Notes: generated by a model from the sequence alone, not told the origin. Positions 146 through 50,237 are shown, counted from the first letter of the stretch. The stretch is DNA of 64,000 nt from Chloroflexota bacterium (GCA_052388515.1 JBQTHZ010000070.1:9924-73923); one strand, 5' to 3'. Numbers and translations: made by a program.

Positions 146-154
146 CGGGTTCCC

Positions 155-4286: not shown

Positions 4287-5153
4287 TCAGCTGCCGGTGG
4301 TCATATCGAGCAATCCCGCCTGACGAGCGCGCTGCATGAACCAGGCGAAGGCGGCCAGGGCAATCGGGATCGCGATGGCGGTCGAGATGACCAGGAAGAG
4401 CATGACCATGCCGTCCGAGATCCCCCCGAGCGTGCCGGGCGATCCGTGTCCGAGAAGGCCACGACGCGACGCCTCCAGCCACCACGTGGTGGGCGAGGCG
4501 TACGCGATCGGGTGGAGGAAGGCGGGGAGGATGTCGATCGGAAAGATGGCGCCCGAGACGAGGTAGAGGGCGCCGGCGATCGCCTCTGGATACGACCAGG
4601 CCTCCTGCCGCAGCTGCAGGCACCACCCTGCCATGAAGACGCCGAGCGCGATGACCGCGGTCACGCCGAGCACGGTGGCCGGCACGAGGTAGAGCAGGTT
4701 CGGCTGCAGGTCGACGCCGAGGAAGACGACGCCCACGACCATCGTCAGGATCACAGCCACGAACGAGACAGCCACGCGCGCAAGAGACCGTCCGAGCAGG
4801 AACGGGAAGAGCGAGGTGGGGGTCACCACGACGTACTTGATCATCCGATAGCGCTCGCGATCCTCGAGGATCGACTGCACCAGCCCGCTCATGACGCCGA
4901 ACACGACGTTCCATAGCGCGCTGCCGACGATCAGGAACTGGAGAAACTCGGGGTTCTGGCCCTGGGTGATGACCTGGAACATCACGACCAGGATTCCCGC
5001 CGCGGCGAGCGGCTTGGCCATGGTGTAGACCGCGAACAGGAACGGGTCGGACCAGTTCGACTCGATCGCCCATCCGAGGCCGATGGCGGTGCGGAAGCTG
5101 CGCCAGGCGTCCGCGAGCGTCATGCCGCGCACGGGCGCGGCTCGGTCGGTCAT
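4287..5153 (-). CDS. ABC-2 type transporter permease
   Basis: Start MTDRAAPVRGM forms an ATGA overlap with the upstream permease stop. Six hydrophobic segments, typical ABC-2 permease pattern. The 667-aa track ORF is an artefactual upstream extension. Confidence 0.85.
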   Translation of the reverse strand: MTDRAAPVRGMTLADAWRSFRTAIGLGWAIESNWSDPFLFAVYTMAKPLAAAGILVVMFQVITQGQNPEFLQFLIVGSALWNVVFGVMSGLVQSILEDRERYRMIKYVVVTPTSLFPFLLGRSLARVAVSFVAVILTMVVGVVFLGVDLQPNLLYLVPATVLGVTAVIALGVFMAGWCLQLRQEAWSYPEAIAGALYLVSGAIFPIDILPAFLHPIAYASPTTWWLEASRRGLLGHGSPGTLGGISDGMVMLFLVISTAIAIPIALAAFAWFMQRARQAGLLDMTTGS

Positions 5154-6025
5154 TGCCATCGCAGGGTCAGGCGCCCCTCGCGGCGGGCGAGCGTCTCGAG
5201 GTAGCCGAGCGCCAGCCGTGCCGCCACCAGGAAGACGGCGCCCATGGCGACGAGGATCAGGACCTCGGCACCCACGGGCAGCACACCCTCGACACCACTG
5301 CCGGCGAAGGCGAGCTGACGCATCGCGTCGAGCCCGACCCCGAGCGGCAGCGTCGCGATCACCACCCCGGCAATCGGCCCGATGGCGCGCAGCGGGAAGT
5401 TGACACCACCCAGGAAGTAGATCGGCTCCTGGAGGAGCTGCGCGAGATGGAAGGCCTCGCGGCCCCAGAGCAGGAAGAGGGACGCGAAGAGCATGCCCAT
5501 CCCATACAGCGGGACCATGGTCAGGAGGAAGACGCCGGCCAGCAGGAACGGCTGCTGGACATCGTAGGTCACGCCGTAGAGCAATGAGCCGATGCCGATG
5601 ACGGCCAGCGCGCGCGAGCTCGTCATCACGAGACCGCCGATCGCCATCCCGGCCAGGATGCTCATGAGGTGCATCGGCGCCGTGAAGTAGAGCTCCAGGT
5701 TGCCCTGGTCCTTCTCCCAGTAGAACTGGGCGGCCATCATCCAGACCACGTTGAGCCAGAAGGCGGTCATGGCGCCACCGAGCACGACGAAGCCGATGAA
5801 CTCCTCGGGCGCCTCCAGCGCGCGGTACACGAACACGAAGGCGCTCACCGCCAGGAACGGCAGGAAGATCTCGAAGAAGAGCCACGACGGCTCTCGGGTG
5901 AGGCCGATGACGCGGGGATAGGCGCGTCCGACGACGGCGCGCAGGTTCGACCGGATGACGCGGCCGGTCGACCATTCGGCAGCATCCCGCGGGTTCGTCG
6001 CGGTGGTCGATCCGTATCGACTCAC
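5150..6025 (-). CDS. ABC-2 type transporter permease (second subunit)
   Basis: A GTG start forms a GTGA overlap with the ATPase stop at 6022-6024. Multi-TM protein and a paralog-like partner of the downstream permease. Confidence 0.85.
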   Translation of the reverse strand: MSRYGSTTATNPRDAAEWSTGRVIRSNLRAVVGRAYPRVIGLTREPSWLFFEIFLPFLAVSAFVFVYRALEAPEEFIGFVVLGGAMTAFWLNVVWMMAAQFYWEKDQGNLELYFTAPMHLMSILAGMAIGGLVMTSSRALAVIGIGSLLYGVTYDVQQPFLLAGVFLLTMVPLYGMGMLFASLFLLWGREAFHLAQLLQEPIYFLGGVNFPLRAIGPIAGVVIATLPLGVGLDAMRQLAFAGSGVEGVLPVGAEVLILVAMGAVFLVAARLALGYLETLARREGRLTLRWQ

Positions 6026-29513: not shown

Positions 29514-29600
29514 GCCGAGGTGGCGGAATAGGCAGACGCGCTAGGTTCAGGACCTAGTGGCCGCAAGGTCGTGTGGGTTCAAGTCCCTCCCTCGGTACCA
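29514..29600 (+). tRNA. tRNA-Leu (anticodon CAG)
   Basis: Hand-folded cloverleaf. Acceptor GCCGAGG/CCTCGGT, anticodon arm CTAGG-TTCAGGA-CCTAG, long variable arm, T-loop TTCAAGT, encoded CCA. Confidence 0.9.
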
Positions 29601-29609
29601 CCCTTCTGG

Positions 29610-29694
29610 GCCCAGGTGGCGGAATTGGTATACGCGTACGTTTGAGGGGCGTATGAGGCAACTCATCCGGGTTCAAGTCCCGGCCTGGGCACCA
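29610..29694 (+). tRNA. tRNA-Leu (anticodon GAG)
   Basis: Acceptor GCCCAGG/CCTGGGC, anticodon arm TACGT-TTGAGGG-GCGTA, long variable arm, encoded CCA. Confidence 0.9.
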
Positions 29695-29714
29695 TTCCCC
29701 TTCTGAGACCGATG

Positions 29715-29741
29715 CGCCGCTCGCGCTCTGCGCGAGCGGCG
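29715..29741 (+). terminator. strong GC hairpin after the tRNA-Leu pair
   Basis: CGCCGCTCGCGC-TCT-GCGCGAGCGGCG with perfect 12-nt arms. No clear U-tract. Confidence 0.5.
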
Positions 29742-29851
29742 TCGCGCTCTCCGGCGGTGGATGGCACGATCGGCCGAGCGTGAGCACGCGCTCGACCCAC
29801 GCCTTGGAGGTGGACCCTCGAGACGCCCGTGATGCGTTCTGTCAACACATC

Positions 29852-29922
29852 AGGGATCGTCATCGCGTTAGGGATTGTCATCCGGCGATTGGGGATGGTA
29901 CTTTCGGCCCAGGATGGCATAG
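29852..29922 (+). repeat. direct repeats AGGGATyGTCATC (two near-identical plus two degenerate copies)
   Basis: AGGGATCGTCATC at 29852 and AGGGATTGTCATC at 29870 match at 12/13 positions. Weaker copies are GGGGATGGTACTT at 29891 and AGGATGGCAT at 29911. Spacing is 18-21 bp. Confidence 0.5.
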
Positions 29923-29929
29923 GCTCTTC

Positions 29930-29952
29930 CATCTGATTCTGCGGATCAGATG
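29930..29952. promoter_or_regulatory. palindrome CATCTGAT-N7-ATCAGATG
   Basis: Perfect 8-bp inverted repeat in the AT-richer spacer upstream of the ECF sigma gene. Confidence 0.35.
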
Positions 29953-30094
29953 CCGTCCTGAATGCCGCCTTCGACCGAGGAGGCATCCCGACCGATTCGC
30001 TCGATGGCCAAGCGAAGCTAGCGCATGATCTGAGACCCGTTGGGGGGCGGTGCGGCGGATGGCAATTCTCGAACGGCGGGGCACTCGTGCCAAG

Positions 30095-30757
30095 ATGAGC
30101 ACGGGTCAAGGCCATCGGGTGGCACTCGGGAGCAGCCACTCCCAGGCCACGGAACTTGTCGCCTCCAAGCCGCCAACAGTGATCGTCGTCACAGCAGGCG
30201 CAGACGGTGAAATCGGCCTCATCGAGCGAGCCAGATCCGGGGATGCAGAGGCGTTCGACGCGCTTGTCGCGATCCGGCTCATGCCCACATTCCGCCTTGC
30301 GCGCTCGATTCTCGGCGGGACGGAGGAGGCGGAAGACGCCACCCAGGAGGCCTTCATCGCCGCGTGGCGCGGCCTGCCCTCCCTGCGCAAACCCGAACGT
30401 TTCGATGCATGGTTCGGGCGCATCGTCGTAAACGCCTGCCGGATGAGCATGCGCCGGCGGCCTAGAACGGTCTTTCTTTCGATCGAGTCGATCAGTGATT
30501 TCCAGCCTTCGGCGGACGATCCTCGGCTCAGCGGGCTCGGCGACAGCGATGCCCTGAACCGCGCTATCGATGCGCTTCCCGTTCAGCAACGGGCGATCCT
30601 CGCGCTCTATTACCTCGAGGATCGACCTGTGTCGACCGTCGCGATGATCCTGGGGATCCCAACCGGCACCGCGAAGTGGCGACTGTCCCGGGCGCGCACA
30701 GCCCTCAGAAGGGCGATGGCTGCGGGCGATGGCAGCGCTTCGGTTCCTGCTCGATAG
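30095..30757 (+). CDS. ECF-family RNA polymerase sigma-70 factor
   Basis: Region 2 (EDATQEAFIAAWRGLPSLRKPERFDAWFGRIVVNAC) and region 4 (LPVQQRAILALYYLEDRPVSTVAMILGIPTGTAKWRLSRAR). Start is uncertain: ATG 30095 or in-frame GTG 30179. Confidence 0.88.
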   Translation: MSTGQGHRVALGSSHSQATELVASKPPTVIVVTAGADGEIGLIERARSGDAEAFDALVAIRLMPTFRLARSILGGTEEAEDATQEAFIAAWRGLPSLRKPERFDAWFGRIVVNACRMSMRRRPRTVFLSIESISDFQPSADDPRLSGLGDSDALNRAIDALPVQQRAILALYYLEDRPVSTVAMILGIPTGTAKWRLSRARTALRRAMAAGDGSASVPAR

Positions 30758-30936
30758 CCCTGCTCGGAAGCGGCGAGAGGAGCCTCGCCCGGCAAAGGTG
30801 TCGGCGCCGCTACCTGGAGATACTGCCTGGCCGATGGCGGCCTATCCAACCGACCGGCTCCCTTCTGCATCTACTCAGGCAGCAGGGTTTACCCGTCTGG
30901 GCCTCGAGATCGTGAGATCGGAGGCGAGCAGCAAGG

Positions 30937-31389
30937 ATGTCGCGGTTCACAGATCAGAACCTCCGGGTGGCCTTTCGTCTCCGAGCGGCGGGCCAGCCGC
31001 GTCCTGGCCTCCGCCAGCGCATTAGACACGCGACGCGCCCCGCACAAGAGCCGGAAACCGTCGCTGTCATCCATGGGACGGCACATCGCCGACCGATCCT
31101 CGCCCGATTCACCGCAATCGCAGCGGTTGCCGCCCTCCTGATCCTGGCGCCCCTGGTCGGTGCGGGGTCCGACCTTTGGCGAAGACCCGACCCGTCTCTC
31201 GGACAGCCGACCCCCGACGAGCGGACCGCGGTCGCCATCGCGTCTGCCATCAACGATGGCGAGGACGACGAGGGCGATGAAGAGGACGACGACGATGAAG
31301 GGGACGACGACGATGAAGACGACGAGGAGGACGACGACGACGAAGACGACGACGAAGACGACCCGGAAAAGTCCGAGGAGGACAGGTAG
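30937..31389 (+). CDS. single-pass membrane protein with poly-Asp/Glu C-terminal tail (candidate anti-sigma factor)
   Basis: 150 aa. A basic N-terminal ~50 aa is followed by a TM segment (ILARFTAIAAVAALLILAPLVGA) preceded by HRR (N-in). The tail is DGEDDEGDEEDDDDEGDDDDEDDEEDDDDEDDDEDDPEKSEEDR. GGAGG lies ~12 nt upstream of the ATG. The gene sits directly downstream of the ECF sigma gene. Confidence 0.65.
   Translation: MSRFTDQNLRVAFRLRAAGQPRPGLRQRIRHATRPAQEPETVAVIHGTAHRRPILARFTAIAAVAALLILAPLVGAGSDLWRRPDPSLGQPTPDERTAVAIASAINDGEDDEGDEEDDDDEGDDDDEDDEEDDDDEDDDEDDPEKSEEDR
31255..31386 (+). repeat. imperfect GAN trinucleotide (GAC/GAG/GAA/GAT) tract encoding the acidic tail
   Basis: 132 nt of almost uninterrupted GAN codons. 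This also generates the poly-Ser and poly-Thr artefact ORFs in other frames. Confidence 0.8.
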
Positions 31390-31426
31390 GCCCGTGCGGC
31401 CTGAGAGGGCGGAAACGCAACCAACC

Positions 31427-34400
31427 ATGGTGCGCGGGGTCGTCGCTTCGAGCGTGAGGTTCCGGCTGCTCGTCATCGGCATCGCAGCGGCGCTCATGCT
31501 GGTCGGTGCGACACAGCTGCGGAACGCACGCGTCGACATCCTGCCCGAGTTCAGTCCGCCGTACGTCGAGGTGCAGACGGAGGCGCTCGGCCTCTCAGCT
31601 GAGGAGGTCGAGGAGCTCATCACCATTCCTCTCGAGGCCGACCTCCTCAATGGGGTGGCGTTCCTCGAGGAGATCCGGTCGGAGTCGATCACCGGGCTGT
31701 CGTCGATCGTGATGACCTTCGAGCCCGGGACGGATATCTTCGAGGCTCGGCAGGTCGTCGCAGAACGACTTACGCAGGCGCACGCCCTCCCGAACGTGTC
31801 GAAGCCGCCGGCCATGCTCCAGCCGCTGGCGACCGAGAACCGGGTCATGATGGTCAGCCTCCGTGCGAGCGACCTGTCCCTGATCGACATGTCGGTACTG
31901 GCACGCTGGAACATCCGCCCCCGTCTCATGGGCGTTCCGGGGGTTGCCAACGTGTCTATCTGGGGCGAGCGCAACCGCCAGCTCCAGGTGCTGGTCGATC
32001 CGACTGAGCTCCAGGAGCAGGGGGTCACGTTGGGCGAGGTCATCACCACGACCGGCAATGCGCTGTGGGTCTCCCCGTTGACGTTCCTTGAGTCATCCAC
32101 GCCCGGTACCGGAGGCTTTATCGATACGCCGAACCAGCGATTGGGCATCCAGCACGTCCTGCCCATCCGATCGGCGGAGGATCTGGCGCGGGTCGTGGTC
32201 GAAACCGAGGACACAAGCCAGAGGCTCCGCCTCGGCGACATCGCAACCGTTGTGGAGGACCACCCGCCGCTGATCGGTGATGCGGTCGTCGGTGATGGAC
32301 ACGGCCTGTTACTGGTGATCGAGAAATTTCCCGGCGTCAACACCCTGGAGGTGACGCGGAGCATCGACGAGGCGCTTGCGGCGATGCTGCCAGGCCTGAG
32401 CGGCATCCAGATCGACACGACGGTGTTCCGACCGGCGAACTTCATCGAGGCCTCGATCGGCAACATCACGCTCGCGCTGCTGATCGGCTTCCTCCTCATC
32501 GCGCTGGTCCTCGGGACCCTCCTCTTTGACTGGCGAGCCGCCCTGATCAGCCTGATCACGATCCCGCTCTCCCTGGCGACCGCTGGGCTGGTCCTCCACT
32601 TTGCCGGCGCGACGCTGAACGTGATGGTCATGGCCGGATTGATCGTGGCCATCGGTGTCATCGTCGATGACGCCGCGACCAGCGTCGAGAGCGTCCTCGG
32701 TCGGCTCCGTAGGCCACAGGAGGGCGACGAGGAACGGACCCCAGCGGTACTCGTCACGCAGGCAGTCCTCGAAGGCCGCCGTCCGATCCTCTACGCCACC
32801 CTGGTCATCCTGCTGGCCCTCGTCCCGGTTTTTTTCATCGGCGGCACGGTCAGCGCGTTCCTGCCGCCGCTGGCCATCGCCTACGGGGTGGCAGTGCTCG
32901 CTTCGATGGCGGTCACGCTCACCGTTGCGCCAGCCCTGGCGGTCCTCCTCCTTTGGCGCGGTTCCGCGGCACGGCGCGAGTCGCCGATCCTGAGCCGATT
33001 GCGCGGTCATTATGGCGCCGCGCTGAGCTCATTTCTGCACCGCAGGCGACCCGGCCTGCTCACCGGCGGAGTCGCCGTGCTGGGCGTGGCCGCCCTCATC
33101 GGCCTTCTCGTGGTACCTCAGGCAAGCGGCTCCGCCTCTGTCTTGCCATCATTCAAGACCAACGAGCTGCTGATCCATTGGGACGGCGCTGCCGGTACAT
33201 CCCGACCCGAGATGGCCCGCATCGTCGGCCGCGCCACGCAGGAGCTCCGAACCATCCCCGGTGTCCAGAACGTGGACGGTCACGTCGGCCGAGCCATCCT
33301 CTCCGACGCGATCACCGACGTGAGCTCGGGCGAGGTCTGGCTCACGATCGACGGCACCGCCGACCACGACCAGACGATCGCCGCGATCAGCAACACGGTC
33401 GACGGCTATCCGGGTCTGGGCAGGGCGATCGTGACGTACCCGGAGGAGCGCATCAGCGAGGTCCTCTCGGGTAGCGAGCATGACGCGGTCGTTCGGGTCT
33501 ACGGCCATGAGTTATCGACCCTCCGTGATCGGGCCGAGGCGGTCCGCCAAGCGATAGCGGGCGTCGCCGGCGTTGTCGATGCCTCTGTCCTGGCTCCGGT
33601 CGAGGAGGCGGCCCTCGAGGTCGAGGTAGACCTCGAGGCGGCCCATGAGTTCGGCCTCAAGGCCGGAGACGTCCGCCGCGCAGCGACCACGCTGCTCTCG
33701 GGCATCGAGGTCGGCCTGCTCTTCGAAGAGCAAAAGGTGTTCGACGTCGTGGTCTGGGGCAAGCCGGAGCTCCGCACGAGCATCTCCAGCGTCGAGAACC
33801 TCATGATCGAAACGTCGGCAGGCGACCTCGTCCGCTTGGCCCAGGTGTCGGACGTGCGGATCGCACCCACGCCGAGTGTCATCACACGCGAGGGCGTCCG
33901 CCGGATCATGGAGGTCGGCGCGAACATCAGCGGCCGCGACGTCGGATCCGCGCTTCGCGATATAAACGTGGCGGTCGGCGCGGTCGAGTTCCCGCTCGAG
34001 TACCACGCCGAGGTGTTCAGCGAGGCAGCAAATCGAGAGGCGGCCCAGACCACGCTGCTGGCGGTGCTGGCTGGCGCGACGATCATGGTATTCCTCCTTG
34101 TCCAGGCGGTCGTCGCCAGCTGGCGTCTTGCGGCATTCGTCTTCGTCACCCTGCCGACGGCGCTCGTCGGTGGCATGCTGACCGCGTTTGCTGGAGGCGA
34201 GCTCGTCTCGATCGGTACGCTGGCAGGTCTCTTCGCGGTGCTCGCAATCAGCATCCGCACCAGCATCTCGCTCATCGATCACTTTCAGAACCTCGAGCGC
34301 ACGGGGTCGGCGCATGCATTCGGCCCGCAGCTGGTCCTGGCGGGCGCCCAGGACCGCCTGGGGCCAACCCTGATGACCGTGCTCGCGGCGGCCGTTGGCG

Positions 34401-34606
34401 TGGTCCCATTCATTGTGCTCGGAGAGGTCGCGGGCCTCGAGGTCGTACGGCCGATGGCGATCTTCGTCCTCGGCGGGCTGATCACCTCGACGCTGTTGAC
34501 GTTGTTCATCGTGCCCGACATCTATCTGCGCTCCGGTCCAAGCCCGCAGGCTGAGGCGGAGACGCTGTCGACTGAGCAGCCGGCCCTCGAGCCGACGATG
34601 GCATAG
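31427..34606 (+). CDS. RND efflux transporter permease, CusA/CzcA-like (paralog 1)
   Basis: ~1059 aa. N-terminus VRFRLLVIGIAAALMLVG..VDILPEFSPPYVEVQT, TM4 acidic relay VIVDDAATSVESV and 12-TM/two-loop architecture. An alternative GTG start is at 31394. Confidence 0.92.
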   Translation: MVRGVVASSVRFRLLVIGIAAALMLVGATQLRNARVDILPEFSPPYVEVQTEALGLSAEEVEELITIPLEADLLNGVAFLEEIRSESITGLSSIVMTFEPGTDIFEARQVVAERLTQAHALPNVSKPPAMLQPLATENRVMMVSLRASDLSLIDMSVLARWNIRPRLMGVPGVANVSIWGERNRQLQVLVDPTELQEQGVTLGEVITTTGNALWVSPLTFLESSTPGTGGFIDTPNQRLGIQHVLPIRSAEDLARVVVETEDTSQRLRLGDIATVVEDHPPLIGDAVVGDGHGLLLVIEKFPGVNTLEVTRSIDEALAAMLPGLSGIQIDTTVFRPANFIEASIGNITLALLIGFLLIALVLGTLLFDWRAALISLITIPLSLATAGLVLHFAGATLNVMVMAGLIVAIGVIVDDAATSVESVLGRLRRPQEGDEERTPAVLVTQAVLEGRRPILYATLVILLALVPVFFIGGTVSAFLPPLAIAYGVAVLASMAVTLTVAPALAVLLLWRGSAARRESPILSRLRGHYGAALSSFLHRRRPGLLTGGVAVLGVAALIGLLVVPQASGSASVLPSFKTNELLIHWDGAAGTSRPEMARIVGRATQELRTIPGVQNVDGHVGRAILSDAITDVSSGEVWLTIDGTADHDQTIAAISNTVDGYPGLGRAIVTYPEERISEVLSGSEHDAVVRVYGHELSTLRDRAEAVRQAIAGVAGVVDASVLAPVEEAALEVEVDLEAAHEFGLKAGDVRRAATTLLSGIEVGLLFEEQKVFDVVVWGKPELRTSISSVENLMIETSAGDLVRLAQVSDVRIAPTPSVITREGVRRIMEVGANISGRDVGSALRDINVAVGAVEFPLEYHAEVFSEAANREAAQTTLLAVLAGATIMVFLLVQAVVASWRLAAFVFVTLPTALVGGMLTAFAGGELVSIGTLAGLFAVLAISIRTSISLIDHFQNLERTGSAHAFGPQLVLAGAQDRLGPTLMTVLAAAVGVVPFIVLGEVAGLEVVRPMAIFVLGGLITSTLLTLFIVPDIYLRSGPSPQAEAETLSTEQPALEPTMA

Positions 34607-34617
34607 GAGCGATCGAG

Positions 34618-35046
34618 ATGAAGCGCAGCAGCGTGTGGGTGTTCACTGGCCTGGTGATCGTCTCGCTCATGCTGACGGGCTGCAGTGATCCGGCGGAGGC
34701 GCCTGCGGACGAGGCCATCCATATCGAGGAGCTCGAGTCGGGACTCAGCACGCTGACGCTCTCGGCCAAGGCAGCCGAGCGGCTCGGCGTGCAGACGACG
34801 GAGGTCGAGGATCGCGGCGCGCAGAAAGTCGTCCCGTACGCGTCGGTGATCTACGACGCGCAGGGCGCGACCTGGGCCTACGTGGCGACCGAGCAACTCA
34901 GCTTCGAGCGGGCATCGATCGTCGTGGAGGTGATCACCGGTGACGAAGCGATCCTGACCGATGGACCTCCTGCGGGTACTCCGGTCGTGATCGTGGGTGC
35001 GGCCGAGCTGTACGGTGCCGAGACCGGCGTCGGCGGCGGCCACTGA
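34618..35046 (+). CDS. lipoprotein resembling a truncated RND membrane-fusion (periplasmic adaptor) protein
   Basis: Lipobox LMLTGC. LTLSAKAAERLGVQTTEVE resembles an adaptor N-terminal strand. KVVPYASVIYDAQGATWAYVA..IVVEVITGDEAILTDGPPAGTPVVIVGAAELYGAE resembles an adaptor C-terminal segment. No room for lipoyl or alpha-hairpin domains in 142 aa. Confidence 0.75.
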   Translation: MKRSSVWVFTGLVIVSLMLTGCSDPAEAPADEAIHIEELESGLSTLTLSAKAAERLGVQTTEVEDRGAQKVVPYASVIYDAQGATWAYVATEQLSFERASIVVEVITGDEAILTDGPPAGTPVVIVGAAELYGAETGVGGGH

Positions 35047-35081
35047 GCGACTGCCCTACATCGAAGGCGGGTCACGAAACG

Positions 35082-38000
35082 ATGCTTCGGCTGATCATCG
35101 CCACCAGCCTGCGCTTCCGCTTCATCATCATCGCGGCGGCCGCCGGGTTGATGTTCTTCGGGCTCGGACAGATCCGGAACATGCCGGTCGACGTGTTCCC
35201 CGAATTCGCCCCGCCCAAAGTCGAGGTCCAGACGATCACGCTGGGGCTCTCCGCGGCGGAGGTCGAATCCCTGGTCACGGTTCCGCTGGAGCAGGCCCTG
35301 GCCGGCGTGGAAGGGCTGGACATCTTGCGCTCGAAGTCGGTCGCCCAGCTGTCCCAGATCGAGATGATCTTCAAGCCCGGCACGGACCTCCTGCGGGCTC
35401 GGCAGCTGGTCCAGGAACGCATCAACGGGATCACCGGCACGTTGCCGACATGGGCCAGTCCGCCGTTCATGATGCAGCCCCTCTCGGCAACGAGCCGGGT
35501 GATCAAGATCGGGCTCTCGTCGGATACTATCGACCTGCTCGACCTGTCGAGCATGTCGTACTGGACGATCCGCGCGCGCCTCCTGGGCGTGCCGGGTGTC
35601 GCCAACGTGATGATCTATGGCGAGCGCCTCGAGCAGATGCACGTCCAGGTCATCCCCGAGAAGCTCGAAGAGCATGGAGTTTCCATCGCCACGGTGATGG
35701 AGGCGAGCTCCGAGGCACTCGACGAGGGCATCCTGATGTTCTCGGATGCGAATGCCTTCGGGACCGGCGGCTGGATCGAGACCGCCAACCAACGGTTCAC
35801 CATCGTCCATCCGCCACCGATTCGCACTGCCGAAGATTTGGCCCACGTGGCGGTCCAGGGTCGTGACGGCAACCTCGTCGACCTCGATGAGCTCGCTCTC
35901 CTGGTCCGCGACCACCAGCCGCTCCACGGCGAGGCGGTGATCAACGACGGCCCCGGGATCATGCTCATCGTCGAGAAGTTCCCGTGGGCGAACACGCTCG
36001 ACGTGACCCGCGGCGTCGAGGCAGCGATGGAAGCCCTGAAGCCAGGAATGGTCGGAATCGAGGTCGATACCACGATGTTCCGGCCCGCGAGCTTCATCGA
36101 GATCGCGCTGACGAACCTGACCTCGGCGCTGCTCATCGGCAGCCTGCTGGTGTTCGTCGTCCTGATTCTCTTCCTGTACGACTGGCGAACGGCGCTGATC
36201 AGCCTGGTCGCGATTCCCCTGTCGCTCATGGCCGCGGCGATGGTGCTCTACCTGAGCGACGTCACCATCAACACGATGATCCTTGCCGGATTCGTGATCT
36301 CGGTCGGAGTGGTCGTCGATGATGCGATCATCGACATCGAGAACATCGTCCGCCGCCTTCGGCAGCATCGCCTGCAGGGGACCGGCGTCTCGACGGCGCG
36401 GGTGATCCTTGAGGCCTCGATCGAAGTCCGGAGCGCGATTGTCTACGCAACCCTCATCGACATCGTCGCGATCACCCCGGTGTTCTTCATCGAGGGCCTT
36501 TCCGGCGCCTTCTTCTTTCCGCTCGCGGTTTCCTACGGGCTCGCGGTCATGGCGTCGCTGTTCGTCGCGCTGACGGTCACGCCGGCCCTTGCCTACATCC
36601 TGTTGCGCAATGCGCCCATCGAACGCCATCGCTCACCGATCACGCAGCGGCTGCAATCCGCCTACGGGGGACTCGTGGCTGGCATCATCCGCAGCACGCG
36701 CCCGGTATTTGCCGCAGTCGGCGTCGTGAGCGTGCTCGGGCTGGCCGTCTGGCCGCAGCTCGGCCAGTCGCTCCTGCCAGACTTCAAGGAACGTGACTTC
36801 CTCATGCACTGGGTGGCGGCGCCGAGCACCTCGCATACGGAGGAGACGCGGATCACGATCGAAGCGTGCAACGAGCTGCGAACCATCCCAGGCGTCCGCA
36901 ACTGCGGTGCCCACATCGGCCAGGCGTTCCTCGGTGACGAACCCTACGGCATCGAGTTCGGGGAGAACTGGATCAGCATCGACCCGTCCGTCGACTACGA
37001 TGCGACTCATGCTGCCGTCCAGGAGGTCGTGGATGGCTATCCCGGGCTGCGACGGGACGTCCAGACGTATCTCAAGGAGCGCATCCGTGAGGTCCTGACC
37101 GGCTCGAGCGAGGCGATCGTGGTGCGGATCTACGGCCCGGATCTCCAGATCCTGCGCGACAAGGCCGCAGAGGTCGAGGAGGCTTTCTCGGCGATCCCCG
37201 GATTGATCGACCTTCATACCGAGCAGCAGGTCGACATCCCGCAGATCCAGGTCGAGGTCGACCTGGCAGCCGCAGAGGGATACGGGATCAAGCCGGGTGA
37301 CGTGCGGCGGGCGGCGGCCGCGCTTGTCGCGAGCGAGGAGGTCGGCGACGTGTTCTTCGGGGGACAGGCTTATGACGTCCACGTATGGAGCGTCCCCGAA
37401 GCCCGCAACAGCGTCAGCGACATCAAGCACCTGCTCATGGACGCCGCCGACGGCAGCAAGGTCCGCCTGGGTGAGGTCGCCGACGTGCGAGTCGCCGCGA
37501 CGCCAGGGCATATCAGCCACGAACGTCTTGCGCGCCGCATCGACGTCGAGGCCAACGTCGACGGGCGAGATCTCGGCTCCGTCTATCGCGATGTTGAGGC
37601 CGCCCTTGCGGGGGTCCGGTGGCCGCAGGAGTACCACCCCGAGCTTCTGGGCGAGTATGTCGAGCGCCAGGCGGCCCAGGATCGCCTGTTCCTGTTCGCA
37701 ATCGCCGCGGCGATCGGCGTGTTCCTCCTGCTCCAGGCTTCCTTCGGCAACACGCGGCTGGCAGTCCTCTCGTTCCTGACCCTTCCGTCGGCCCTGGTCG
37801 GTGGAGTGCTCGCAACGTGGATCGGGACCGGCGTGGTTTCACTGGGGTCGCTGGTCGGGTTCTTCACGGTCCTGGGCATCGCCGCCCGCAACGGGATCAT
37901 GATGATCAACCACTTCCAGCACCTGGAGCGCGAGGAGGGTGAGCCATTCGGACCCGGCCTCGTCATCCGTGGCGCACGGGAGCGGCTCGCGCCGATCCTC

Positions 38001-38222
38001 ATGACCGCCCTCGCAACGGGTCTTGCGCTGGTTCCGCTCGCGATCGCCGGGGATCGGCCCGGTCACGAGATCGAGCACCCGCTGGCGATCGTCATCCTCG
38101 GCGGGCTGATCACCTCGACGTTGCTGAACCTGTTCGTCGTCCCCTCCCTGTATCTGCGCTTCGGAAGGAGCAGGGATGGGCAGGACCGTCCCCGCAAGGT
38201 GGTGGCGGCAACAACCGTCTGA
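35082..38222 (+). CDS. RND efflux transporter permease, CusA/CzcA-like (paralog 2)
   Basis: 1046 aa with [34 protein letters not shown] and [13 protein letters not shown]. Collinear similarity to paralog 1 throughout. Confidence 0.93.
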
Positions 38223-38260
38223 CGAAAGACGGGGGGTCGAATGCAAGGGCCAGCCCCGCC

Positions 38261-38270
38261 CAGATATCTG
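38261..38270. promoter_or_regulatory. 10-bp perfect palindrome CAGATATCTG
   Basis: Located in the short spacer between RND paralog 2 and the next gene. The adjacent ATCTGATC is the reverse complement of GATCAGAT in the 29930-29952 palindrome. Confidence 0.25.
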
Positions 38271-38322
38271 ATCGGCTCGTATCGGAGGCATGGTCGGCTT
38301 GTATGGGAGGCAAGGGGACAAG

Positions 38323-39288
38323 GTGAGACGTGGCTTGAACCTCGCTACGTCGCGGACCCATCCGGTCGAGACGTCATTCCTGGCTTTGGCGGTCCTGGCT
38401 TCGGCATGCAGCGCCGGGCCCGGATTGACACCTCGGGAGGAAATGGCATGGCGCACCCCCGGGGCTGAGGTCGAGCCGACGTCATCTTACGGCGAGCCTA
38501 CGTCCTCGGACGAGCCGTTGACCGAGGACTTCGACGCGGCAACGTTCGAGGACCCGACCATGATCGACAACGAATGGTTCCCGTTCACTCCCGGCGCTCA
38601 TTGGGCGTATGAGGGGACCACCGTCGACGGTGACGAGACGTTCGAGCATCGCATCGAGTTCACGGTCACCGACTTGACCAAGGAGATCGCTGGCGTGCGC
38701 ACGCGTGTGGCGTGGATCGTCGACTACACCGGCGACGAGCTGGTGGAGAAGGAGATCGCCTTCTACGCGCAGGCGACCGACGGCACGGTCTGGTACCTGG
38801 GTGAACACCCCGAGGAGTATGAGGAGGAGGAGTTCGTCGAGGCGCCGACCTGGATTCATGGCGTGGAGGGGGCGGTCGCGGGGATCACCATGCCGGCCGA
38901 GCCAGAGGTCGCCGTACCCAGCTTCTCGCAGGGATGGGCACCGGCGGTCGAGTTCTCCGATCGCGGCGAGATCGCCGAGATCGTCGACGAATTCTGCATT
39001 GCCGAGCAGTGCTACCCGGCCCTCCTGATCGTTGAAGAGTTCAATCCAGACGAGCCGAACGCCTTCCAGCTCAAGTACTACGCCCGCGGCGTCGGCAATG
39101 TGGCGACCCGTTGGAGGGGCATCGACGCCGCGCAGGAGGAGCTTGAGCTCCTCAGCTTTGCCCAGCTCGATCGCGATGCTCTTGCTGAGATCAGGACCGA
39201 GGCTCTGGCCCTGGAGGCCCACGCATACGAGATCAGCACGGATGTATACGGCCTGACGCAGCCCATGGTGCAGGAGACCACGCCGTGA
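38323..39288 (+). CDS. secreted protein / lipoprotein of unknown function
   Basis: The GTG at 38323 follows GGGAGGCAAGGGGA. Signal peptide RRGLNLATSRTHPVETSFLALAVLASAC with an ASA-C cleavage site or lipobox-like site. Acidic mature protein (HPEEYEEEEFVE). The track ATG at 38290 is possible but has a poor SD. Confidence 0.7.
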   Translation: MRRGLNLATSRTHPVETSFLALAVLASACSAGPGLTPREEMAWRTPGAEVEPTSSYGEPTSSDEPLTEDFDAATFEDPTMIDNEWFPFTPGAHWAYEGTTVDGDETFEHRIEFTVTDLTKEIAGVRTRVAWIVDYTGDELVEKEIAFYAQATDGTVWYLGEHPEEYEEEEFVEAPTWIHGVEGAVAGITMPAEPEVAVPSFSQGWAPAVEFSDRGEIAEIVDEFCIAEQCYPALLIVEEFNPDEPNAFQLKYYARGVGNVATRWRGIDAAQEELELLSFAQLDRDALAEIRTEALALEAHAYEISTDVYGLTQPMVQETTP

Positions 39289-39437
39289 GTCGTTTGCGGG
39301 CACCCCGGTGATTGGGCTCGGCCCGAGCGTCGATCGCCGTACATGGACGCGCCAAGCTGCGGTTGGGACTCTATGATCGACGGTGCCTCCGTCGACAGTG
39401 CTCTTCGCCGCGGCGGGCAATGGTACCCTCGCGATCG

Positions 39438-39514
<77 letters not shown>

Positions 39515-39572
39515 ATGGCACCTGTGATCCGCGGTGCTTTCGCCCTCTGGCCGCGAGGCGTACACTCGGCCC

Positions 39573-40049
39573 ATGAAGACCGGCATCCTCGCGGTCATCG
39601 CGCTCGGCGCCGTGGTGTGGGGGTTTGCCGTCATCGGCATCTTCAGCGTCGCGCAGGCGATCGGTCCTTCGGTGCCGCCCGGCCCGGCGCCTCTGCTCGC
39701 CCCGATCGATTGGGATCTCGAACGGGCGCAGATCGTGAACCTGCCGGAGTATCCCGGGGCGGTCCGCTCCGAATTCCGCCAAGAGGTGTTCGGCGACGAG
39801 CTCGTCACCGAGATCGAGTATGTCGTCGAGTCGGGCACGCAGCAGGTCATCGGGCACTATCGGGAGACCTTTGATCGTGGCGGGTGGACCGTGACCGGAT
39901 CGACCTGGGTTCGCGGCGAGTGGACCTACGCCGTGAGCCGTGGCACTCGGCACGGTGTCGTCGAGATCGAGCGGCGGGACGGGGTTACCGAGGTCGAGGT
40001 GGAGATGGCCGAGCCGACCGTATCGCGAGGGCATCTCACCGACCGATGA
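39573..40049 (+). CDS. hypothetical membrane-anchored protein
   Basis: The internal ATG lies 6 nt downstream of a TACACT box. One N-terminal TM segment (ILAVIALGAVVWGFAVIGIF) is followed by a ~110-aa beta-rich domain. Confidence 0.65.
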   Translation: MKTGILAVIALGAVVWGFAVIGIFSVAQAIGPSVPPGPAPLLAPIDWDLERAQIVNLPEYPGAVRSEFRQEVFGDELVTEIEYVVESGTQQVIGHYRETFDRGGWTVTGSTWVRGEWTYAVSRGTRHGVVEIERRDGVTEVEVEMAEPTVSRGHLTDR

Positions 40050-42206: not shown

Positions 42207-42282
42207 GCCGAGGTAGCTCAGTCGGTAGAGCACCGCCCTGAAGAGGCGGGTGTCGTCAGTTCGATTCTGACCCTCGGCACCA
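42207..42282 (+). tRNA. tRNA-Phe (anticodon GAA)
   Basis: Acceptor GCCGAGG/CCTCGGC, anticodon arm CCGCC-CTGAAGA-GGCGG, encoded CCA. Confidence 0.92.
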
Positions 42283-42311
42283 GCACTGCGGTATCATCGG
42301 GTGACAAGCGG

Positions 42312-42387
42312 GCGGAAGTGGCTCAGTTGGTAGAGCATCACCTTGCCAAGGTGAGGGTCGCGGGTTCGAGTCCCGTCTTCCGCTCCA
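42312..42387 (+). tRNA. tRNA-Gly (anticodon GCC)
   Basis: Acceptor GCGGAAG/CTTCCGC, anticodon arm TCACC-TTGCCAA-GGTGA, encoded CCA. Confidence 0.92.
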
Positions 42388-42443
42388 TTTTCGTGTCCGG
42401 CTGGCTACAGTCACGGCTGACCTGCTAGCGTGAGACGAGGCGT

Positions 42444-42517
42444 TGCCCCGTCGTCTAGTGGTAGGACAGCGGACTTTGGATCCGTGAACCGAGGTTCGAA
42501 TCCTCGCGGGGCAGCCA
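42444..42517 (+). tRNA. tRNA-Gln (anticodon TTG)
   Basis: Acceptor TGCCCCG/CGGGGCA, anticodon arm GCGGA-CTTTGGA-TCCGT, encoded CCA. Confidence 0.9.
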
Positions 42518-42532
42518 GCCGGCCTGTCGTGT

Positions 42533-42607
42533 GGCGACGTGCCCGAGTGGTTCAGGGAGCGGTCTGCAAAACCGCGTACACGGGTTCGATTCCCGTCGTC
42601 GCCTCCA
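42533..42607 (+). tRNA. tRNA-Cys (anticodon GCA)
   Basis: Acceptor GGCGACG/CGTCGCC, anticodon arm GCGGT-CTGCAAA-ACCGC, encoded CCA. Confidence 0.9.
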
Positions 42608-43233: not shown

Positions 43234-43317
43234 GCCGGAGTGGCGGAATGGCAGACGCAGCCGGCTTAAACCCGGCAGCCGAAAGGCGTGGGGGTTCGAG
43301 TCCCTCCTCCGGCACCA
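43234..43317 (+). tRNA. tRNA-Leu (anticodon TAA)
   Basis: Acceptor GCCGGAG/CTCCGGC, anticodon arm GCCGG-CTTAAAC-CCGGC, long variable arm, encoded CCA. A TACACT box lies 10 nt upstream. Confidence 0.9.
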
Positions 43318-48512: not shown

Positions 48513-48572
48513 GAGGCGCGTCGCGACGGCCGGGTCTCACCCGCAGCCGGCCACGTCGCCGGCCTGACGACG

Positions 48573-50237
48573 ATGACCACCACCGACGATCCCGACCGCC
48601 TTCGCTGGCTCGGCCGCCTGCTGGAGATGGTCCCCGGCACCATCTCATGGGCGATCCTGATCCTGCCGCTCTGGCTCAGCTTCAGCTATCCGTGGCTGGT
48701 CGCGTACTTCGTGCTCAGCTTCGACTTCTACTGGCTCTGTCGCGCGCTCTGGTTCAGTGGCGCGGTCATCATCGCCTTCGGTCGCATCCGCGACGTGCTC
48801 GCGATCGACTGGACCGACCGCCTCACCGGCCTGGCGGACCCGGCCGCGCGGCGGAAGGAGCTCGAAAAGAGCCTGCGCTCCATCGGCGCCGACGCACCCA
48901 GCAGTGCCCTCGGCGTGAGCGCCATTGCTCGCCCGAGCGGAGCGGCGCGTCGACGACTCCGACGCGAGCTCGCCGAGCTTCGCGCGTTTGAGTCGCTGGC
49001 TCCGGCGCCGCCGCCCGCCGATGAGCTCATTCACCTCGCGTTGATCCCGACCTACACCGAGCCGCTGGACAAGCTCCGGCATACCGTCCGAGCGCTGGCC
49101 GAGGCGGCGTGGCCGGCGGAACGCAAGATCTGCGCGATCATCACCCGGGAGACGGACGAGGGCGGCATCGCCAACGTGCAGTCGCTGCAGGCCGAGTTCG
49201 GCGACGCGTTCGCCGAGTTCATCCACATCCTGGATCCGCTCGAGCCTGGCATCGTGGTCGGGAAGAGCAGCGCCATGGCGTGGGGCGGTCGCTACCTGTA
49301 TCGCAAGCTCGTCAGGGAGCGGGGGATGGATCCGCGCCGGATCATCGTCACGGACCTGGACGCCGACTACCGGGTCCACCCGCAGTACTTCGCCTACCTG
49401 AGCTGGGTCCACGTGACCGATCCCAACCGGGAGACGCAGCTGTATCAGCCGATCCCGTACTTCCACAACAACATCTGGGATGCGCCGCTGTTGCAGCGCC
49501 TCTTCGCCGCGGTCCTCACCCAGCTCCAGATGTGGCGCAGCGTGCTGCCCGAGAAGCTCCAGAGCTTCGGGTCGTACTCGACGACGCTCCACCTCGTTCA
49601 CGACGTGGGGTACTGGGCGACCGACGCGATCCCGGAGGACAGCCGCTTCTATTGGAAGAGCTACTTCCGCTACGGCGACCGCTTCCGCGCCGTGCCGCTC
49701 TTCATCCCGATCTACGGTGACGCCGTCCGGGCGCGCGGCTATTGGCGCAGCATGGCCGAGCAGTACCTCCAGGCGCGCCGCTGGGCGTGGGGCGTGACCG
49801 ACATCCCGTTCGTGATCGACAACGCGGTCAGGCATGCCGAGATCCCCTGGTCCTCGCGCTTCTGGCGCGTCATGAACCTCTTCGGCGAGCACATCAACTG
49901 GGCGATCACGCCGTTCGTGCTCACATTCGGCGCCACTGTCCCGCTGCTCATCAATCCCGCCTTCGGCGAGACGACACTAGGGCAGAACCTGCCGCTCTAC
50001 GCCAGCAGCATGCTGACCCTGGCGATCGTGAGCCTCGCCGTCCTGATCGTCGTGGAGCACCGAATCGTGCCGGCACGTCCAACGGAGTGGGGCTGGGTCC
50101 AGCGCACGATCAGCTACATCCAGTGGATCGGCCTGCCATTCGTGGGCATCATCTTCAGCATGGTGCCGGCGCTCGATGCCCAGACGCGCCTGCTCACCGG
50201 CCGCTACCTGGAGTACAAGGTCACCGAAAAGGTCTGA
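48573..50237 (+). CDS. membrane-embedded family-2 glycosyltransferase, processive-synthase-like
   Basis: N-terminal 2 TM and C-terminal ~4 TM segments. GT-A motifs LIPTYTEP, TDLDAD and IPEDSRF, plus the QxxRW-type motif QARRWAWG. Confidence 0.8.
   Translation: MTTTDDPDRLRWLGRLLEMVPGTISWAILILPLWLSFSYPWLVAYFVLSFDFYWLCRALWFSGAVIIAFGRIRDVLAIDWTDRLTGLADPAARRKELEKSLRSIGADAPSSALGVSAIARPSGAARRRLRRELAELRAFESLAPAPPPADELIHLALIPTYTEPLDKLRHTVRALAEAAWPAERKICAIITRETDEGGIANVQSLQAEFGDAFAEFIHILDPLEPGIVVGKSSAMAWGGRYLYRKLVRERGMDPRRIIVTDLDADYRVHPQYFAYLSWVHVTDPNRETQLYQPIPYFHNNIWDAPLLQRLFAAVLTQLQMWRSVLPEKLQSFGSYSTTLHLVHDVGYWATDAIPEDSRFYWKSYFRYGDRFRAVPLFIPIYGDAVRARGYWRSMAEQYLQARRWAWGVTDIPFVIDNAVRHAEIPWSSRFWRVMNLFGEHINWAITPFVLTFGATVPLLINPAFGETTLGQNLPLYASSMLTLAIVSLAVLIVVEHRIVPARPTEWGWVQRTISYIQWIGLPFVGIIFSMVPALDAQTRLLTGRYLEYKVTEKV

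Follow-up and report, generated by a model that had tools for sequence, protein, structure and literature searches.

A putative outer-membrane-factor-independent, twin-RND efflux module with a one-domain adaptor in a tRNA-bracketed block of a Chloroflexota genome

Efflux pumps of the resistance-nodulation-division (RND) type and their adaptors are understood almost wholly from the tripartite systems of Gram-negative bacteria. Here, we describe a block of six genes in a 64,000-nucleotide stretch of DNA from a Chloroflexota bacterium (GCA_052388515.1, JBQTHZ010000070.1:9924-73923; the whole of this stretch is hereafter called the window). The block occupies positions 29695-39437, which is the exact space between tRNA-Leu(gag) and tRNA-Val as located by ARAGORN, and its genes, all on the + strand, fill this interval. 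They encode, in order, an extracytoplasmic function (ECF) sigma factor, a 150-aa protein with an acidic tail, the RND permease RND1, a 142-aa lipoprotein (here termed mini), the paralogous permease RND2 and an exported acidic protein. We regard the block, with moderate confidence, as an outer-membrane-factor-independent, twin-RND efflux module with a one-domain adaptor, an architecture that is so far undescribed.

The described systems closest to the RND1-mini-RND2 core, which we call the cassette, are the heavy-metal efflux (HME) RND pumps, such as ZneCAB, CzcCBA and CusCFBA (TCDB 2.A.6.1). The cassette RNDs share with these the ACR_tran fold with 12 transmembrane (TM) segments, give their best scores with ZneA and CusA and fall into the same tree grouping; RND2 has carboxylates at four of the five proximal-site positions of ZneA, and mini contains a domain homologous to the membrane-proximal domain of SilB, CusB and ZneB. 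However, the cassette has no outer-membrane factor, only one adaptor domain and two RND paralogues instead of one. It also differs from HME pumps in that the motif of TM segment 4 (TM4) is DDA rather than DGA or DAA, the Met triad is missing and the distal Zn site is not conserved; moreover, it is found mainly in monoderm phyla, and its score against the model TIGR00914 is below the cutoff.

Two paralogous RND genes and a single adaptor gene in one operon are also found in MdtABC of E. coli and in MuxABC-OpmB, where, as in the cassette, one RND paralogue is better conserved at functional sites. However, MdtBC belongs to the HAE-1 pumps (hydrophobe/amphiphile efflux 1) and works with full-length MdtA and TolC, whereas the cassette heteromer is a predicted one; in addition, the adaptor gene comes first in mdtABC but lies between the RND genes in the cassette, and the duplications appear to be independent in a neighbour-joining tree. 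By analogy, the closest comparison for its mode of working would be a cross between an HME pump and a heteromer of the MdtBC type. In the mycobacterial MmpS-MmpL systems (HAE-2), a membrane-anchored accessory protein of about 140 aa stands beside an RND that works without a TolC-like channel. The cassette resembles them in having a small anchored accessory, similar in role, next to a channel-independent RND; however, mini has no Pfam MmpS match, MmpS structures are missing from its top Foldseek matches, and the cassette RNDs, unlike MmpL, are of the AcrB/HME type and expected to be trimers.

With regard to adaptors, those associated with RND pumps are stated to have all four domains (PMC8277102), and the same architecture is stated for Gram-positive bacteria, with BesA, which has no hairpin, and EmrA, which has no membrane-proximal domain, as extremes (PMC4338810). 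These two show that the plan of four domains may be shortened (PMC4338810). Like them, mini would be a natural adaptor lacking canonical structure; unlike them, it has lost three domains and keeps only the one that EmrA lacks. The role of adaptors in Gram-positive bacteria has been termed an open question by reviews (PMC4338810), and the largest phylogeny of HME pumps, those of the nodulation-factor exporter (NFE) type and HAE-1 pumps left out the Actinobacteria, Chloroflexi and Firmicutes (PMC10872679).

The RND1-mini-RND2 cassette

The three genes of the cassette are as follows.

31427-34606, + strand: RND1, the diverged paralogue, 1059 aa (Pfam ACR_tran, 1.1e-167)
34618-35046, + strand: mini, predicted adaptor lipoprotein with the membrane-proximal domain only, 142 aa, with a signal peptide and an LTGC lipobox
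35082-38222, + strand: RND2, the conserved and presumably catalytic paralogue, 1046 aa (Pfam ACR_tran, 9.6e-209)

The start of RND1 is backed by its orthologues and by the public gene call, and the two RNDs are 47% identical to each other. A preliminary description of this DNA, made from the sequence alone, had reported neither an outer-membrane factor nor a full-length membrane-fusion protein (MFP), and a Pfam analysis agrees that the block encodes neither.

The mature form of mini comprises 121 residues, and the GC content at third codon positions (GC3) of its gene is 0.85. It has no significant Pfam or NCBIfam family, and no HlyD, lipoyl or hairpin model of Pfam matched it even at E<=10. 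However, when its profile was compared with the PDB, the top match was 5a4g, an engineered 180-residue SilB construct made up of the N-terminus and the membrane-proximal domain, followed by the C-termini of other adaptors. The AlphaFold2 (AF2) model of mini is confident (pLDDT 84, and >90 over residues 31-130) and shows a single beta domain with short helices. In Foldseek searches with this model, the best 23 matches were all adaptors (AcrA, SilB, TMexC, MexA, CusB, TriA/B and ZneB), with MacA and BesA lower, and the superpositions on adaptor membrane-proximal domains covered 57-71 columns at 1.2-2.5 A.

Further evidence came from the TolC-MFP-RND operon of the Hymenobacter plasmid pHA, whose RND is 50% identical to RND2 and carries the same motifs. 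Residues 4-69 of mini align to residues 14-78 of the 409-aa adaptor of this operon, and residues 72-142 align to 341-409, i.e. up to its last residue, with 44% identity. Given this split alignment and the identity of the RNDs, mini corresponds to the cognate adaptor minus about 260 internal residues; judging from the alignments and the model, the predicted missing parts are the hairpin, lipoyl and beta-barrel domains. The 142-aa lipoprotein had already been proposed to be a minimal adaptor, and the profile match to 5a4g, the Foldseek results and the split alignment together bear out this proposal.

The mini family is large and well conserved. We found 843 relatives among 5.8 billion proteins, those listed being about 142 aa long, without a Pfam domain and mostly annotated as 'hypothetical'. 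Among 33 aligned sequences, 29 positions are invariant, including the lipobox Cys and the C-terminal GVGGGH. A profile search against 1.84 billion representatives returned 2369 clusters (50% identity) at E<=1e-3; in the best 150 of these, about two thirds are 140-160 aa long, about one third are 230-290 aa long and match in two stretches around an insert of roughly 100 residues, and a few are full-length proteins. The HlyD barrel-sandwich model is matched by one intermediate, of 331 aa. The coexistence of short, intermediate and full-length forms therefore indicates that a graded series of reductions exists. In the literature searched, which was an incomplete library, we found no description of a single-domain adaptor or of an RND1-mini-RND2 cassette. 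We also noted two single open reading frames (ORFs), P0392 (1219 aa) and P0389 (690 aa), in each of which an RND permease and a mini domain are combined; they may be real fusions with a 13th TM segment or the products of missed stop codons.

Next, we consider the family placement of the RNDs. The best NCBIfam model for both is TIGR00914 (CusA/CzcA), with generic multidrug models close behind; the scores are 538 bits for RND2 and 419 bits for RND1, against a cutoff of 701. When compared with solved structures, RND2 and RND1 scored 371 and 286 bits with ZneA, 296 and 239 bits with CusA, and at most 240 and 184 bits with HAE-1 pumps. In a neighbour-joining tree, the cassette RNDs form one clade with the single RNDs of the Hymenobacter and Methylomonas plasmids (100/100), to which a Variovorax RND is sister (96/100). 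This group falls with CzcA and CusA and is split from AcrB, MdtB and MdtC (100/100), and within it the cassette clade is sister to CzcA and CusA and thus outside the canonical HME pumps. The tree was built by a distance method with only 10 references (including E. coli CusA, AcrB, MdtB and MdtC, two members of the CzcA family and further RNDs from plasmids) and contains no NFE, HAE-2 or HAE-3 members. It also traces RND1 and RND2 back to a single duplication of ancient date, and the RND1 branches are the longer ones. Based on the score ranking and the tree, the cassette RNDs are related to HME pumps and yet appear to form a deep branch of their own. The block had been likened beforehand to a metal-pump system. 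The RNDs are indeed nearer to HME than to HAE-1 or MmpL, but formal membership of the HME family failed: the scores lie under the TIGR00914 cutoff, and the DFG-DGA-VEN signature, a CusA-type TM4 and the Met triad are all missing.

The motif of TM4 in the cassette RNDs is (A/S)xG-x3-DDA-x3-(V/I)EN, and in RND1 of the window it reads AIGVIVDDAATSVES (AIG-VIV-DDA-ATS-VES). The corresponding HME signatures are DFG-x3-DGA-x3-VEN in HME1-3a and A(V/I)G-x3-DAA-x3-IEN in HME4, while the DDA pattern is common to HAE-1 pumps and NieA and occurs as DDS in the cyanobacterial HME5 pumps (PMC7060636 supplementary file 9). The motif alignment shows that both RNDs have the AcrB-like DD pair of the proton relay. 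An Arg in TM10 of the cassette RNDs stands in place of AcrB Lys940. In RND2, D413 and D414 are encoded at 36318-36323 and R936 at 37887-37889.

We also examined the metal sites of structurally characterised HME pumps. The Met triad of CusA (M573, M623 and M672) aligns to H, F and E in RND2, and the Cu(I)/Ag(I) site is therefore absent from this protein. The proximal Zn site of ZneA consists of E136, D602, E610, D654 and D658 (PMC7060636 supplementary file 9); RND2 has R139, E620, E628, E666 and E670 at these positions, and A, N and L at those of the distal site. Among 64 RND2-type orthologues, D413, D414, R936 and H944 are invariant, and D619, E620, E628, E666, E670, H576 and W577 are nearly so. 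Conservation is looser in 55 RND1-type orthologues, in which, at the equivalent RND2 positions, D413 is kept in 45, Q takes the place of E620 in 30 and the EN of TM4 varies; RND1 of the window itself retains D414, D415 and R944. This asymmetry, together with the precedent of MdtB/MdtC, suggests that RND2 may be the catalytic protomer and RND1 a specialised partner.

In addition, each RND carries an 11-aa insertion in the docking domain, encoded at 32063-32095 in RND1 (LWVSPLTFLES) and at 35718-35750 in RND2. It is present in every cassette RND of both types, with a paralogue-specific sequence, and opens a segment that aligns with the inter-protomer loop of AcrB. The Hymenobacter, Methylomonas and Variovorax relatives lack it, as do CzcA, CusA, MdtB and MdtC, and AcrB has a shorter, unrelated extension at this place. 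As the insertion occurs only in cassette RNDs, the docking and oligomerisation surface has therefore been remodelled in the very lineage from which the channel and the upper domains of the adaptor disappeared. The insertion may specify hetero-oligomerisation or cap the exit funnel, and the paralogue-specific loops and the asymmetric conservation would fit a mixed RND1/RND2 trimer.

Distribution of the cassette and its accessory genes

To survey the cassette, one genome per species was scanned with the mini profile and 80 loci were kept, which were searched by tblastn with the six window proteins; neighbouring ORFs were clustered. Of the 59 loci that leave room on either side of the mini gene, 52 have an RND gene immediately before it and another immediately after it. 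The loci span the Chloroflexota (many of them Limnocylindria), Actinomycetota, Dormiibacterota, Gemmatimonadota, Planctomycetota and Pseudomonadota. Hosts in the Actinomycetota include Arthrobacter globiformis NBRC 12137, A. pascens DSM 20545, A. oryzae DSM 25586, Solirubrobacter, Rubrobacter and Nocardioides, and diderm hosts include Gemmatimonadota, Pirellulales, Thiohalocapsa (locus L020), Steroidobacteraceae, Roseobacter and Polaromonas. In the Polaromonas locus (L075), the protein encoded between the two RND genes is a longer adaptor of 356 aa. Given that diderms such as Thiohalocapsa carry the same mini, loss of the outer membrane cannot alone explain the reduction of the adaptor. The wide and patchy spread of the core cassette fits horizontal transfer.

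The neighbours that recur beside the cassette are homologues of the exported protein (29 loci), a NarL-type regulator with a HisKA_3 kinase (16 loci) and an OmpR-type regulator (7 loci); neither an outer-membrane factor nor a full-length adaptor recurs in the neighbourhoods of the approximately 80 loci. The suggestion that the six genes of the block travel together was thus not upheld, as the conserved unit is RND1-mini-RND2, often with the exported lipoprotein. Nor is the pair of sigma factor and acidic-tail protein generally co-inherited with the pump: it occurs in only a few close relatives, and others use a HisKA_3/NarL two-component system. In other words, this pair is a narrow, lineage-specific and dispensable addition, and the entity proper is the twin-RND/mini core.

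The classical operons most closely related to the cassette are carried on plasmids: the TolC-MFP-RND operons of Hymenobacter (pHA, L083) and Methylomonas (pFW12EY, L087), both located beside OmpR-type two-component systems. PGAP labels their RNDs with the generic 'efflux RND transporter permease subunit', and the pHA operon also adjoins two PAP2 phosphatase genes.

Comparison with two close relatives revealed that the module relocates. Locus L001, with 77-89% protein identity to the window, has the same module at the same tRNA site, with a metallophosphoesterase gene on the other strand in place of the exported-protein gene. Locus L019 has the same SecG-tRNA synteny; however, its interval between tRNA-Leu(gag) and tRNA-Val is about 250 bp long and empty, and sigma-acid-RND1-mini-RND2 is located instead downstream of the tRNA-Cys of a four-tRNA cluster. 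The preliminary description had proposed looking for relatives in which the interval is empty, and L019 is such a case. The comparison of L001 and L019 therefore indicates that the module moves as a five-gene unit between tRNA-adjacent sites. The mildly lower GC and GC3 of the block, given below, point to mobility as well. No integrase was found, and no att-like direct repeats flanking the block beyond generic tRNA 3'-end similarity. The L019 contig (DASQFY010000139.1, positions 1-5300) is labelled Candidatus Dormiibacterota; however, its synteny SecG-tRNA-Leu-Leu-Val...Phe-Gly-Gln-Cys is identical to that of the Limnocylindria window, and SecG is very similar, so that the taxonomic label or the binning looks doubtful. 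After tRNA-Val, L019 has two ORFs (1604-2125 and 2188-2805) whose C-termini look cupredoxin-like by eye; the place that they occupy is taken in the window by an ORF of 171 aa (39534-40049).

The regulatory and accessory features of the block are as follows.

30059-30757, + strand: ECF-type sigma factor (Pfam), with an uncertain start (GTG 30050, ATG 30059 or ATG 30095)
30846-30874, + strand: candidate promoter of the ECF type, in the gap that separates the sigma gene from the putative anti-sigma gene, made up of CCAACCGA (-35-like), a spacer and GCATCTAC (-10-like)
30937-31389, + strand: 150-aa single-pass protein with a poly-D/E tail (by translation)
38290-39288, + strand: acidic exported protein (ORF), 332 aa from ATG 38290 or 321 aa from GTG 38323

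The sigma factor, whose start at ATG 30059 is conserved in L001, matches Sigma70_r2 (3.7e-14) and Sigma70_r4_2 (1.4e-11) of Pfam, i.e. regions 2 and 4 only, without region 3; the GC3 of its gene is 0.74. Its assignment to the ECF superfamily held up (NCBIfam TIGR02937, 79.7 bits against a cutoff of 42.9), but placement in a particular ECF group did not, as none of the specific NCBIfam group models was passed and the best of them (SigM and SigE-fam_strep) stayed under their cutoffs.

The 150-aa protein, which crosses the membrane once, is probably an anti-sigma factor or a sensor. Its cytoplasmic N-terminus of 57 residues is basic (isoelectric point, pI, 12) and is followed by one TM helix and an ectodomain of 73 residues (pI 4), of which roughly the last 45 are D, E and G. 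No significant Pfam or NCBIfam family was found for it, and its sole family signal is a weak match of residues 17-84 to the NCBIfam anti-sigma model NF052375 (E 2e-4; 21 bits against a cutoff of 100). As its cytoplasmic part contains no Cys, there is no zinc-binding anti-sigma motif. With the non-repetitive part as the query, a search of 5.8 billion proteins yielded only 6 homologues, each of them from a Limnocylindria-like source. Eight aligned homologues show conservation of the first 30 residues and of the TM helix, and the D/E tail is always acidic but variable in length, which would be expected if the 9-nt repeat that encodes it is prone to slippage. In the window and in L001, L019, L092 and L093, the gene follows the sigma gene and precedes RND1, although the gene upstream of it in L093 is cut and unannotated. 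We also observed that the RND1 frame is open for 267 nt 5' of the real start (31160-31426), overlapping the poly-D/E tail in another frame; this extension reads as a T/K-rich stretch, and the D/E codons form the 9-nt periodic repeat.

The gap between the sigma gene and the 150-aa gene (30758-30936 in the window) contains the motif C(C/A)AACC(A/G)A(C/A)C-spacer-TT(C/T)(T/C)GCATC(T/G)A(T/C)T in all five of the above loci. Its invariant core is AACC.A.C ... TT..GCATC.A.T.A..CAG, and the rest of the gap is variable. In its AAC-containing upstream element and its spacing, the motif at 30846-30874 resembles ECF promoters, and on this basis we propose that the sigma factor may drive the genes for the anti-sigma protein, RND1, mini, RND2 and possibly the lipoprotein. 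A search for the same motif upstream of the sigma gene gave misfitting spacing, and thus no evidence of autoregulation through it. A promoter GGCAAT-N17-CTCGTG had previously been suggested just before the sigma ATG at 30095; it is not conserved in the closest relative, L001, and because of the conserved ATG at 30059 it falls within the likely coding region.

The regulatory genes had also been likened to cnrYXH-cnrCBA of Cupriavidus. The layout agrees: as in CnrYXH, the gene for an ECF sigma factor stands next to that for a small single-pass membrane protein whose cytoplasmic segment is short, and both lie upstream of an HME-type pump. However, the conserved unit does not agree. The block has no gene for a CnrX-like periplasmic metal sensor, the ectodomain is of poly-D/E low complexity, and the sigma and anti-sigma genes stand 179 nt apart, with a conserved promoter-like motif in the gap between them; the likeness to CnrY is one of arrangement.

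The exported protein is probably an acidic, DUF3108/YmcC-like beta-barrel lipoprotein, as judged from sequence and model. It has no significant Pfam or NCBIfam family of its own, and some of its relatives give a weak signal for DUF3108_like (PF21347). The window, P0249, L004 and L021 share a conserved (A/G)SAC site that follows a hydrophobic stretch, and this site suggests that the protein is a lipoprotein; two Cys are invariant in the family. Its AF2 model (pLDDT 83) has disordered residues 1-61, then a beta-barrel and a C-terminal helix. The best Foldseek matches are 3fzx and 4fvs (DUF3108/YmcC-like, E about 2e-5), with LolA3, nitrobindin, EPDR1, DUF1849 and VtrC as weaker matches, and the predicted fold hints at the carriage of a ligand, either cationic or hydrophobic. 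The mature protein has a pI of 4.05 and 62 D+E residues against 14 K+R; all extracytoplasmic parts of the module have a pI of about 4. Its 2393 relatives include many tandem duplicates of roughly 570 aa in Anaerolineae. Such duplicates make up most of the top relatives (e.g. P0135-P0254), where they outscore the product of the window's own gene, and their named sources are Anaerolineae, Anaerolineales or Promineifilaceae.

A working model and its rivals

From the gene content, domain identities, conservation and relocation between tRNA sites described above, we infer how the module might operate. RND1 and RND2 would act together, probably as a hetero-oligomer, in which RND2 would hold the full proton relay and the carboxylate cluster of the entry cleft and RND1 would be the faster-evolving partner. 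The membrane-proximal domain of adaptors contacts and stimulates the transporter. Mini, with this domain only, would sit between the RNDs and activate the transporter, and the acidic barrel lipoprotein would be a frequent ligand-binding accessory. The poly-D/E ectodomain of the anti-sigma-like protein would sense cations, transcription of anti-sigma-RND1-mini-RND2, and possibly of the lipoprotein gene, would start from the conserved candidate promoter of the 179-nt gap, and the control exerted by the ECF factor would be negative feedback. Because of the four ZneA-like carboxylates, the acidic extracytoplasmic parts and the poly-D/E tail, the likeliest substrate would be cationic, i.e. divalent metal ions or organic or peptide cations, which the pump would expel from the membrane or the cytoplasmic face of a cell that has a single membrane. 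In evolutionary terms, three changes to a classical TolC-MFP-RND operon would have produced the cassette: its RND gene would have been duplicated, its adaptor stripped of the hairpin, lipoyl and barrel domains, and its channel gene lost. The cassette would then have spread horizontally.

We put forward, more tentatively, the wider proposition that RND1-mini-RND2 represents a distinct, widespread, channel-independent class related to HME pumps, in which the membrane-proximal domain suffices for the activation of a heteromeric RND and possibly also for its assembly; this seems to us quite possible. Comprising a single adaptor domain and a pair of RND paralogues but no channel, the cassette is a naturally minimal system, and it is present in thousands of soil and freshwater genomes as well as in cultured Arthrobacter strains. 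It therefore makes testable whether the membrane-proximal domain alone is enough for RND activation, how heteromeric RNDs assemble and what HME-like pumps export in one-membrane bacteria. If the proposition is true, the core job of adaptors, independent of the outer membrane, would be activation of the transporter, which would help to explain adaptor function in single-membrane bacteria. The present analysis also supplies names for three large families hitherto labelled 'hypothetical protein'.

Several points weigh against the working model. The scores of both RNDs lie below the TIGR00914 cutoff, and the tree combines few references with a distance method. The DDA motif of TM4 is shared with HAE-1 pumps besides the HME5 and NieA types, a CusA-type Cu/Ag site in RND2 had to be rejected for want of the Met triad, and E136 and the distal site of ZneA appear not to be conserved in RND2. 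The modelled exported protein resembles hydrophobic-ligand-binding barrels. The commonest alternative regulator is of the HisKA_3/NarL type and is no typical metal sensor, and the assignment of the 150-aa protein as an anti-sigma factor draws on its context and one weak match. Adaptation to a monoderm envelope, to which the preliminary description had pointed, is not the whole story, since the cassette also occurs in diderm phyla. P0392 possibly reflects a missed stop codon, because its internal signal peptide and lipobox are intact. Finally, no paper on any member of the cassette was found in the literature searched, and the reading is a computational one.

The main rival is that the cassette moves a hydrophobic or amphiphilic compound (a lipid, glycolipid, pigment or xenobiotic) out of the membrane, with the DUF3108/LolA-like lipoprotein as an acceptor or shuttle, a role put forward for MmpL or HpnN systems, and the resemblance to metal pumps reflecting ancestry only. 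The lipoprotein does match DUF3108/YmcC-like barrels and then the hydrophobic-ligand binders LolA3, nitrobindin, EPDR1 and VtrC; the DD pair of TM4 and the basic residue of TM10 form an AcrB-type relay; many relatives have an adjacent HisKA_3/NarL system with a TM-rich kinase, of a type often linked to envelope stress; and the outer-membrane factor is missing, as in HpnN and MmpL systems. However, the RNDs are nearest to HME in overall sequence, and RND2 has four nearly invariant carboxylates at the Zn positions of ZneA, where HAE-1 pumps are non-acidic. The strongly acidic extracytoplasmic components suit cations better, and the lipoprotein, which would be the acceptor, is present in only about a third of the loci. 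We consider lipid export unlikely. A strict form of the cnr analogy, in which the block is a six-gene heavy-metal island like cnrYXH-cnrCBA and the acidic tail binds Ni, Co, Zn or Cu, appears more improbable still. It would account for the order of an ECF sigma factor, a small single-pass protein and HME-related RNDs, for the short basic cytoplasmic segment, which presumably recalls the anti-sigma domain of CnrY, for the relocation of the module between tRNA sites and for the conservation of the acidic tail. On the other hand, the six genes are not co-conserved, the acidic protein has just 6 homologues, and the core occurs with other regulators or none. A CnrX-like sensor, an outer-membrane factor and a full-length adaptor are all missing from the block, as is the HME1/2 motif DFG-DGA-VEN, and TIGR00914 scores below its cutoff. 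Moreover, the block has no further metal-resistance genes, and a poly-D/E tail is a low-specificity binder of cations with no selective metal site.

The module might also be thought of as a decayed tripartite pump, in which the 142-aa gene is the pseudogene of a truncated adaptor and one RND is redundant or non-functional. RND1 is indeed degenerate at several catalytic positions in some orthologues, and mini is without three of the four canonical adaptor domains. However, mini is represented by about 2369 clusters, with two thirds of the best 150 at 140-160 aa, and 33 of its sequences share 29 invariant positions and an invariant C-terminus; its GC3 of 0.85 is a coding signature and its AF2 model is confident. 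The order RND1-mini-RND2 is kept across phyla, and RND1 of the window keeps D414, D415 and R944. Decay of this kind is hardly credible, and the conservation data effectively refute a pseudogene or truncation artefact in the case of mini.

Boundaries and composition of the block

The block is bounded by tRNA genes, and two further features lie between its left boundary and the sigma gene.

29514-29600, + strand: tRNA-Leu(cag) (ARAGORN)
29610-29694, + strand: tRNA-Leu(gag) (ARAGORN), the Leu pair forming the left boundary of the module
29692-29764, + strand: GC-rich hairpin abutting tRNA-Leu(gag) (inverted repeat I1, 35-nt arms, 74% complementary), conserved in L001
29765-30058, + strand: AT-richer spacer 5' of the sigma gene, with AGGGATYGTCATC repeats (about 29852-29885) and the motif GGTACTTTCGGCC (29897-29909)
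39438-39514, + strand: tRNA-Val(tac) (ARAGORN), the right boundary of the module, which is the same in L001

ARAGORN and the ORFs thus confirm what had first been reported of the block, namely its position between the Leu/Leu and Val tRNAs and the order of its six genes. The intergenic spacings are, from 5' to 3', 179, 37, 11, 35 and 67 nt. A scan for terminators between the genes of the block gave no credible candidate, and the sigma-70 and terminator scans were at chance level. The hairpin at 29692-29764 could be a terminator or a processing stem. The spacer had been called AT-richer and repeat-rich. The former is correct, as 29780-30028 has 59.8% GC against about 69-70% nearby; the latter is so only modestly, since there are two to three copies of AGGGATYGTCATC and one hairpin (29692-29764). 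The core GTACTTYCGGC of GGTACTTTCGGCC is kept upstream of the sigma gene in an alignment of the window, L001 and L019, and the motif is essentially unique within the window.

The bulk of the block has a GC content of 64-68%, against 69-73% in its upstream neighbours. GC3 is 0.82-0.86 in the four downstream genes of the block, 0.74-0.75 in the sigma and 150-aa genes and 0.87-0.92 in the flanking housekeeping genes. The rest of the window had been taken for housekeeping DNA, and we likewise found UvrA, UvrB, UvrC, SecDF, IleRS, PriA, WhiA, TIM, iPGM and SecG, with the genes for WhiA, TIM, iPGM and SecG immediately upstream of the block. Proteins in NCBI with >90% identity to those of the window are named 'Candidatus Limnocylindria bacterium', by which the host is judged to be a Limnocylindria (Chloroflexota) metagenome-assembled genome.

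Three further features of the window were noted. The 171-aa ORF after tRNA-Val is unannotated, and an ORF of 574 aa (48513-50237) has a strong coding signature (GC3 0.91) and no Pfam match at E<=1e-5. A tRNA cluster, Phe-Gly-Gln-Cys, lies at 42207-42607 and is kept in L001 and L019; in the window it is followed by tRNA-Leu(taa) at 43234-43317.

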